A DNA stretch of 64,000 bases from Gammaproteobacteria bacterium (GTDB lineage Bacteria > Pseudomonadota > Gammaproteobacteria > JACKNK01). Within the stretch, counting starts at the first letter, position 1; each line of letters starts with the position of its first letter. Where the stretch lies: assembly GCA_024234955.1 (NCBI GenBank), contig JACKNK010000001.1:212835-276834 (forward strand), written 5' to 3'. The translations under genes and the position numbers were made by a program. Below are positions 61,172 through 61,477 of this stretch, piece after piece. The notes under the pieces were generated by a model that ran no database searches, had not been told where the DNA came from, and worked only from the letters and a program-made list of their open reading frames with translations.

Positions 61172-61242
61172 CGTCCTTCCTCCGAATCAGGTCCATGTTC
61201 CTGAATACGTTGAGAAAAAACCGATAGACGCCAATTGAATGG

Positions 61243-61283
61243 GGTTCAGGTGGTCGGAGGTTCAAATCCTCTCGCCCCGACCA
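61243..61283 (+). repeat. tRNA-Pro 3' fragment (variable loop/T-arm/acceptor/CCA) with no 5' half. It is the ICE att direct repeat (attR-type).
   Basis: ggtggtcggaggttcaaatcctctcgccccgacca matches the 3' third of bacterial tRNA-Pro. No complementary cggggcg acceptor strand lies upstream. Confidence 0.6.
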
Positions 61284-61477
61284 ACACAATCTGGTCCGAT
61301 TACCCTGATCCAATTGGCCAGAATAAAGACCGGAGGTTGCTTCTCCGTTGCGAAGCTCGAAGGTGTTACGCCTCCTCGGGCTTTTTTTATGTCGCGTAAC
61401 TTCCGGATTTCGTCACACGGCCCTAAGCTCTGGGGATTTCGTAAGCTGACGCGTGCGTCTCGCTTTAGCGGTATCCC

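Follow-up and report, generated by a model that had tools for sequence, protein, structure and literature searches.

We analyzed a 64,000-nucleotide stretch of DNA (the window; contig JACKNK010000001.1 of assembly GCA_024234955.1, positions 212,835 to 276,834) from an uncultured gammaproteobacterium that probably oxidizes sulfur and denitrifies. Near the end of the window, a 3' fragment of a tRNA-Pro(GGG) gene lies upstream of the gene parA/soj. With a probability of about 0.9, this fragment is the parA-side attachment (att) junction of an 88.7-kb integrative and conjugative element (ICE) of the pKLC102/PAPI-1 type, located in the 3' part of a chromosomal tRNA-Pro(GGG) gene through site-specific recombination by a tyrosine recombinase. 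Both ends and the size of a conjugative island were thus set in this organism, and the exact attL and attR sequences were obtained together with predicted attP and attB sequences. The boundary biology is textbook: the element is a new pKLC102/PAPI-1 group member from the environment, and its att junction is ordinary. Only two points are mildly unusual, namely, a second integrase inside the window and a cargo of anaerobic-respiration genes, bounded by insertion sequences (IS), outside it.

The two ends of the element

The parA-side junction consists of the following features, given in window coordinates.

60323..61171 (-): parA/soj, the terminal ICE gene (Pfam AAA_31 and CbiA; 41% identity to pKLC102 ParA, E 1e-51)
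61172..61235 (no strand): P arm on the element side, from the att core to the start codon of parA, without similarity to the tRNA 5' half
61236..61288 (+): att core, an exact 53-nt direct repeat detected by an exact-match search in the reconstructed 97.8-kb composite
61236..61283 (+): tRNA-Pro(GGG) 3' part, the displaced chromosomal copy, exact within the host gene (contig L218, 11080-11156), with no ARAGORN or Rfam call
61289..61400 (+): native downstream region of the tRNA-Pro gene (B' arm), with hairpins at 61331-61347 and 61352-61384 and then a U-run, which is terminator-like
61542..62633 (-): apbC, the first chromosomal gene outside the element, which converges on the tRNA fragment (NF008669, 443.8 bits against a cutoff of 348)

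The tRNA-derived stretch was delimited by comparison with the full gene of the host and with the annotated tRNA-Pro(GGG) genes of Burkholderia and Ralstonia. It is 48 nt long, with the sequence TGAATGGGGTTCAGGTGGTCGGAGGTTCAAATCCTCTCGCCCCGACCA, and spans tRNA-Pro(GGG) positions 29 to 76, i.e., from the last 3 bp on the 5' side of the anticodon stem through the anticodon loop (which contains GGG), variable loop, T-arm, and 3' acceptor strand to CCA. All 48 positions were identical to the host's own full tRNA-Pro(GGG) (48/48). When the window ends were compared by megablast with plasmid and chromid records, 61236-61289 matched annotated tRNA-Pro(GGG) genes of Ralstonia and Burkholderia; the last 45 nt of the fragment were aligned with a single mismatch, which is a compensated anticodon-stem pair. 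These tRNA-Pro genes were the only matches among the plasmids, and no related element was found there. The 32-mer at 61252-61283 occurred once in the window and had 0 matches in dinucleotide-preserving shuffles.

The complete cloverleaf of a functional tRNA-Pro gene (acceptor 5' strand, D-arm, and anticodon arm) was absent from the site, and the fragment cannot work as a tRNA. No tRNA was called there by ARAGORN, and no Rfam tRNA was found at the site, neither at the gathering score nor at an E value of ≤10. The sequence 5' of 61236 bears no likeness to a D-arm or a 5' acceptor strand, and the alignment with the tRNA diverges completely at this point.

The start of parA is 64 nt from the fragment, in divergent orientation. 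A simple promoter scan for parA found no sigma-70 consensus in the P arm, and the parA promoter must lie within 61172..61235 or read in from the att core. A ParA scan of viral contigs gave no match. Beyond apbC, the chromosome continues with yrbG (Na_Ca_ex), kdsD, kdsC, lptC/A/B, rpoN, hpf, and ptsN (context shown in L003).

The far end lies outside the window. The upstream sequence was taken from public contigs found by exact-protein look-ups (contigs 3 and 65 of the NCBI metagenome-assembled genome [MAG] GCA_020444785.1 and contigs of ENA ERZ27309186), which overlapped the window with 99.99 to 100% identity. The same proteins co-occur on one contig of 975,765 bp. An intact tRNA-Pro(GGG) gene was located at window coordinates -27466..-27390, 27.4 kb before position 1. 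It is preceded by the chromosomal genes thrS-infC-rpmI-rplT-pheS-pheT-ihfA-merR, and the tRNA-Pro(GGG) gene of Ralstonia has the same pheT-ihfA-merR context. Directly after the intact tRNA stands a gene for a 303-aa tyrosine integrase (Int303), whose end is 168 nt from the tRNA.

The partner of the 53-nt repeat was found at -27437..-27385, within and just past this intact tRNA-Pro, and the insert between the two copies measures 88.7 kb. No third copy was detected in the 97.8-kb composite, even at E<0.1. Past the 53 nt, 87 of about 115 positions (~75%) were identical between the two ends, with an alignment score of 42 compared with a shuffle mean of 3.7 (standard deviation, 1.7), and both downstream copies fold as two hairpins followed by a U-run. 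The GC content was 58.4% and 59 to 60% in the chromosomal flanks, 66.2% in the integrase-proximal 27 kb, and 60.7% in the conjugative core. These values argue for a foreign origin of all of the DNA between the repeats.

Going leftward from position 1, the composite contains the end of traI, a 186-aa open reading frame (ORF), an IS481-type transposase reduced to its 5' remnant and cut by an IS3 element, and a second IS3 that truncates a ferredoxin gene. The genes nnrS, moaA, narL, narX, napC, napB, and napA and NapG/H-like ferredoxins follow this IS cluster. Further leftward come DsrC-like and NapH-like genes, ubiT, a methyltransferase gene, ubiU, ubiV, radical-SAM and DsbD-like genes, a short HATPase fragment, and finally Int303. 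The block of 27 kb (L130 1-13544 and L218 1-10912, window coordinates about -27220 to -3320; 66% GC) is an anaerobic nitrate-respiration package (nap, narXL, and the O2-independent ubiquinone synthesis genes ubiTUV) within the mobile island. A native chromosomal origin of the nap/nar region, with the ICE ending at the IS cluster, was considered and rejected: its GC content of 66% compares with 58 to 60% in the flanks, and an integrase and a full tRNA lie beyond it. The IS cluster itself lies at about 13445-16100 of L130. One IS3-family element truncates the ferredoxin gene, and three Logan contigs end at L130 13471-13474. A second, different IS3 abuts the first in opposite orientation and cuts the 5' remnant of the IS481-type transposase, of which 50 codons are left.

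Several of these results bear on an earlier, sequence-only reading of the window. It had proposed integration into a tRNA-Pro gene, which is now supported by the full tRNA-Pro(GGG) and the integrase at the far end and by the exact 53-nt repeat, and it rightly saw no complete tRNA at the parA side, where the 5' half was looked for and found absent by ARAGORN, Rfam (E≤10), and alignment. Its tRNA-Pro 3' piece matches the host gene at 48/48 positions; the length given for it, 35 to 40 nt, was too short, as the piece runs from the anticodon stem-loop to CCA. Likewise, the repeat does align with a full tRNA, but instead of about 40 bp it comprises 53 exact nt and about 115 diverged nt. The element continues past the window start, as it had stated, with traI cut by position 1. 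The housekeeping genes apbC and yrbG that it placed outside the parA end were borne out by the NF008669 match and the apbC-yrbG-kdsD-kdsC-lptCAB-rpoN context. An intact tRNA-Pro and an integrase were expected beyond traI, outside the window, and were found there (27.4 kb upstream, with Int303); its placing of the integrase outside the window is half right, since another one is encoded at 6502-7416.

A candidate partner copy inside the window was also considered. ARAGORN's only call in the window was an 83-nt "tRNA-Pro(GGG)" at 44441-44523 (+), which was rejected as the partner, with no Rfam match at E≤10 and nothing in common with the fragment. This intergenic call folds marginally better than shuffled sequences (z, -1.8) and is probably a false positive; the site is a GC-rich palindromic element upstream of a minus-strand gene starting near 44367.

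Integration model and competing explanations

Related ICEs from uncultured hosts were compared with this element, namely, L222 to L224 (Chromatiales MAG GCA_020445565.1 and ENA contigs), L220 (GCA_054015995.1), and L227. They share its integrase clade (40 to 50% identity) and its MobH traI neighborhood. On L223 and L224, which are two independent metagenome contigs, an int gene (41% identical) is separated from parA and parB by a gap of 356 bp (1057-1412 of L223). Within this gap, the 48-nt tRNA-Pro segment recurs without any difference and from the same first base, which makes the gap an attP junction of that relative. The contiguity of L223 and L224 implies a circular or plasmid form, or a tandem copy, in those samples; L222, the MAG contig of the same element, breaks inside the tRNA-Pro repeat.

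In L220, an Int304-like gene is internal; it follows the type IV secretion system (T4SS) genes and precedes traI by three genes, and a tRNA-Thr(TGT) about 200 nt past traI marks the end of the ICE. In L227, traI is directly followed by int and then by the 3' part of a tRNA-Lys(TTT), while L228 uses yet another tRNA. L226 has an 85%-identical integrase and the same local gene order as the window. One integrase per relative was present in the stretch seen, either terminal (L222 and L227) or just inside traI (L220). The related elements resemble this one in that their tRNA end is followed by a hairpin and a T-run ahead of the first ICE gene. Because the relatives sit at tRNA-Pro, tRNA-Thr, tRNA-Lys, and another tRNA, switching of the tRNA target is routine in this integrase clade. 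In environmental lineages, the XerC/D-like integrases of the pKLC102 type have thus diversified in their targets, which include tRNA-Pro(GGG), tRNA-Thr, and tRNA-Lys.

The window itself encodes an integrase between the T4SS genes and traI.

6502..7416 (-): Int304, a XerC/D-like tyrosine recombinase of 304 aa (Pfam Phage_integrase), homologue of the pKLC102 Int

Int304 was 30% identical to the pKLC102 integrase over 270 aa (E 2e-40), and Int303 aligned with the same protein at 31% identity. The two are paralogues with 43% identity to each other. Since all members of the clade are 40 to 50% identical to one another, similarity cannot tell whether Int303 or Int304 uses tRNA-Pro. An Int304 homologue occupies the same position in L220, and L226 shows the same order of FA-hydroxylase, int, and an opposed small recombinase. 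In the window, this small recombinase is a tyrosine recombinase of only 194 aa (5550-6134 [+]; Phage_integrase, E 2.5e-43) that converges on Int304. It has no similarity to the Int of pKLC102 (E 0.065) and could be of the resolvase or invertase type; L226, an unrelated Logan contig, carries the same pair.

Integration can be modeled from established knowledge of tRNA-targeting tyrosine integrases. The circular form would carry attP between the integrase end and parA, holding tRNA-Pro positions 29 to 76 and a terminator of its own. This attP (parA side, core, terminator, and integrase side) would recombine with the chromosomal tRNA gene. At the far junction, the chromosomal 5' part of the tRNA would be joined to the 3' part and the terminator of the element, so that the gene would remain intact with the integrase directly after it. 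At the near junction, the native 48-nt 3' part would be stranded just outside parA, together with its downstream sequence and terminator. The predicted attP links window positions 61172-61288 with the sequence after the full tRNA (from L218 11079 downwards), and the predicted attB links the full tRNA (L218 11156-11080, minus strand) with window positions 61284-61400. Both junctions, the exact repeat, the gene content, the contrast of an intact tRNA with a dead fragment, and the attP of the relative were observed directly. The diverged arm of ~75% identity would be explained most simply if the element imports its own, host-related tRNA 3' half and terminator and rebuilds the gene at the integrase end; identity from 5' of the anticodon loop to the 3' end is what such rebuilding needs. 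In this element, in the attP of the relative, and in pKLC102, the identity starts only 3 bp 5' of the anticodon loop, and strand exchange is therefore most likely within or close to that loop. The loop (ATGGGGT) forms a 7-nt spacer between the inverted halves of the anticodon stem. Excision would take place between the two 53-bp repeats, and we infer that the element is still able to excise.

A number of observations weigh against this interpretation. The window record itself does not include the far end, which was read from other contigs of this organism, and neither an empty site (attB) nor a circular junction of this element was found. The closest relatives of ApbC, 80 loci with 60 to 82% identity in a metagenome scan, had no tRNA-Pro or yrbG beside apbC; as they are distant and not syntenic, the preinsertion state is deduced rather than seen. 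A genome scan with the tRNA-Pro(GGG) 41-mer revealed no empty site and, among at least 120 loci listed, none with ParA or ApbC relatives. TraI scored 140.6 on TIGR03760, the PFGI-1-class TraI family, under the cutoff of 161.4. Finally, two integrases are present, and an IS cluster (two IS3 and a truncated IS481) separates traI from the 27-kb high-GC part, so that the present structure may have arisen by fusion and may have lost the ability to move as one unit.

These last points underlie the strongest competing explanation, to which we give somewhat less than even odds. According to it, a 61-kb ICE (from Int304 and traI to parA) was integrated first and created the fragment in the window, and a 27-kb cargo island with Int303 (ubiTUV, nap, and narXL) was later inserted into the restored tRNA gene; the middle att copy was destroyed by IS activity, and the integrase at the far end is not the ICE's own. 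Such stepwise accretion would account for two paralogous integrases of 43% identity, and in L220 the Int304-type gene is the only integrase seen in a 21-kb locus, with the ICE end about 200 nt after traI at tRNA-Thr. In the composite, the place where the ICE would be expected to end is held by the IS481 remnant cut by IS3, the second IS3, and the truncated ferredoxin gene, and the truncation of the remnant and of the ferredoxin gene indicates that DNA was lost at this traI-distal spot. Genes truncated by IS elements at exactly that boundary, together with the architecture of L220, make the scenario plausible. The 27-kb part also lacks conjugation genes and has a GC content of 66.2%, compared with 60.7% in the core. 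However, no third att copy or remnant was found. Whether the whole 88.7-kb unit is a hybrid formed by accretion of two tRNA-Pro-specific elements, with the internal att erased by IS elements, is a slightly more tentative proposition still. If it is, a conjugative core with its own integrase carries, and could mobilize, 27 kb of foreign DNA for anaerobic respiration (the periplasmic nitrate reductase genes nap, narXL, moaA, nnrS, ubiTUV, and a gene for a DsbD-like protein), with a second integrase at the terminus. The element would then exemplify, in nature, how an ICE acquires a complete module for a respiratory lifestyle through tandem integration and fusion.

It is rather unlikely that the repeats are real scars of an old integration in a fixed relic, i.e., an IS-scrambled island that no longer excises or transfers and whose tRNA fragment has no present role. 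The IS cluster between traI and the cargo would fit such a relic, as would the same integrated arrangement in three independent assemblies and the failure to recover any contig with the attP or attB of this element. Nevertheless, the 53-nt repeats have stayed identical to each other, and full-length open frames are retained for both integrases, the relaxase, coupling protein, and T4SS ATPase; moreover, because short-read contigs break exactly at the repeat, they can neither show nor exclude an excised form. Hardly credible is a fragment unrelated to the ICE, be it a decayed tRNA pseudogene, a chance tRNA-like sequence, or a complete tRNA with an overlooked 5' half. Nothing besides the tRNA resemblance speaks for this, and it is refuted by the 48/48 match to the host gene, the abrupt end at the same tRNA position as in the attP of the relative, the partner repeat at the other end of the island, and the lack of any called cloverleaf.

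Conjugative core and known elements

Besides parA and Int304, the core of the ICE in the window comprises the following features.

58606..60330 (-): ICE-type ParB of the PFGI-1 class (TIGR03764, 179.8 bits against a cutoff of 143.75)
9506..24737 (-): genomic-island (GI)-type T4SS block with TIGR03755, TIGR03756/TraU, TraC (TIGR03744), TIGR03752, TraD (TIGR03754), and TIGR03759, all above curated NCBIfam cutoffs
1..1652 (-): 5' part of traI (MobH relaxase), a gene that continues beyond the window start (minus-strand open frame 1808..3; TraI_2 and TraI_2_C)

In the T4SS block, the bit scores and cutoffs were 829.9 and 647.55 for TIGR03754, 852.4 and 520.6 for TIGR03744, 302.6 and 270.45 for TIGR03755, 268 and 188.35 for TIGR03756, 276.1 and 241 for TIGR03752, and 142.9 and 126.4 for TIGR03759. 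The full TraI, read from L130, has 582 aa and scored 296.1 bits on the MobH family NF041494 (cutoff, 200), with ~27% identity to the MobH of pKLC102 over 95% of the length. Inward of ParB, the minus strand encodes DUF2857, RepA_C, and topoisomerase III and then a TraG_N protein, an SNF2-type helicase, a type IV pilus ATPase, and a secretin.

The characters of the pKLC102/PAPI-1 type were found together: a TIGR037xx T4SS, a MOBH relaxase, terminal ParA/ParB by att, a XerC/D-like integrase, and integration at a tRNA 3' end with the repeat at the soj end. In pKLC102, ParA lies 136 nt from one end of the record, and the record begins with ~50 nt that read, in reverse complement, as the 3' part of tRNA-Lys from the anticodon stem on. 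The other end carries mobH and then a 427-aa integrase. The anatomy in the window is that of the soj end of pKLC102, with a different tRNA. The claim in the sequence-only reading that the truncated repeat lies at the soj end in this ICE family agrees with this layout, in which the tRNA 3' fragment is divergent and upstream of parA. More generally, the element resembles pKLC102 and PAPI-1 of P. aeruginosa (ICEHin1056-ICEclc family, GI-type T4SS, MPF_G, and MOBH) in its terminal parA with a divergent tRNA 3' fragment of ~48 to 52 nt upstream, and further in its XerC/D-like integrase, MobH, ICE-type ParB, DUF2857, topoisomerase III, type IV pilus genes, and TIGR037xx T4SS set. It differs from pKLC102 in using tRNA-Pro(GGG) instead of tRNA-Lys, in having two integrases of ~300 aa instead of one of 427 aa, neither of them directly after traI, and in the 27-kb cargo and the IS cluster that separate traI from the terminal integrase. 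Its host is an uncultured gammaproteobacterium. Targeting of tRNA-Lys characterizes the members in P. aeruginosa (PMC9495688) but is not general in the family at large.

ICEclc as well as PAGI-2 and PAGI-3 have a long P4-type integrase, use tRNA-Gly (tRNA-Lys in PAGI-3), and are flanked by a repeat of ~18 bp limited to the acceptor/T end. Unlike these, the present element has a pKLC102-type integrase and a repeat that reaches back to the anticodon stem. The overall layout of tRNA, integrase, large cargo, traI-to-parA core, and short tRNA 3' repeat is the same as in these three elements (PMC2704930).

Within the core, the TraG_N gene is located toward the parA end, at a distance from the remaining T4SS genes at 9.5 to 25 kb (sites 50702-52219 [-], 52332-52848 [-], and 49064-50269 [+]). 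Its neighbors are a RelB/ParE toxin-antitoxin pair and a TcmP "three-Cys-motif partner" gene (TIGR04474), the latter in a patch of low GC content (54 to 55%). The gene order around TraG_N is unusual relative to pKLC102 and PAPI-1. In the T4SS block, a small CsrA-like gene (PF02599, weak match) at 12347-12592 (-) directly follows traC. A CsrA gene is found at the same position in L220, which is reminiscent of the CsrA paralogues of Legionella ICEs.

tRNA-Pro(GGG) as an island target

As reported previously, members of the pKLC102 subtype in P. aeruginosa use tRNA-Lys and XerC/D-type integrases (PMC9495688), and members of the wider family use tRNA-Phe, -Leu, -Lys, and -Gly (PMC3864950). Our full-text literature search found no description of a pKLC102- or ICEclc-type element in tRNA-Pro. 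The Legionella GI-T4SS islands LlbGI and LdrGI-b adjoin tRNA-Pro genes (PMC3864950). Unlike those of the present ICE, their integrases are unrelated to the PAPI-1 and ICEHin1056 ones, and no relaxase was identified in them (PMC3864950). Repeats of 37 to 48 bp from the tRNA 3' end were reported for other Legionella genomic islands, not for LlbGI and LdrGI-b, which come from draft genomes (PMC3864950). The target had been called unusual before its comparison with relatives. This holds only relative to the model elements at tRNA-Lys, -Gly, -Phe, and -Leu (PMC3864950 and PMC9495688); for the lineage it does not hold, given the attP of a relative with the identical tRNA-Pro core, sister integrases at tRNA-Thr and tRNA-Lys, and the Legionella islands (PMC3864950).

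Islands commonly target tRNA-Pro(GGG). Of the 122 listed matches to the 41-mer of this tRNA (among at least 120 loci in many phyla), about 15 were true 3' fragments, and all of these begin at or next to the anticodon loop. For annotation, tRNA-Pro(GGG) 3' fragments starting at the anticodon loop should be regarded as common island scars. Among the matches listed, such fragments occur in Acidithiobacillus, Chromatiaceae, and other groups. L075 carries two fragments 0.9 kb apart (816-856 and 1724-1764), and L043 has one at 1.7 kb from a full gene. Many fragments have a similar CAATAAATCAAG..ACTTA motif after them, suggesting a different, widespread island family at tRNA-Pro(GGG).

A low-GC block (52 to 55%) was also noted at 1947-5162 (-), between Int304 and traI. 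It encodes a protein of 673/695 aa whose N terminus is a GNAT domain and a protein with an ASCH domain, and it contains an ORF of 199 aa for which no family matched. The block resembles inserted cargo, possibly related to defense.

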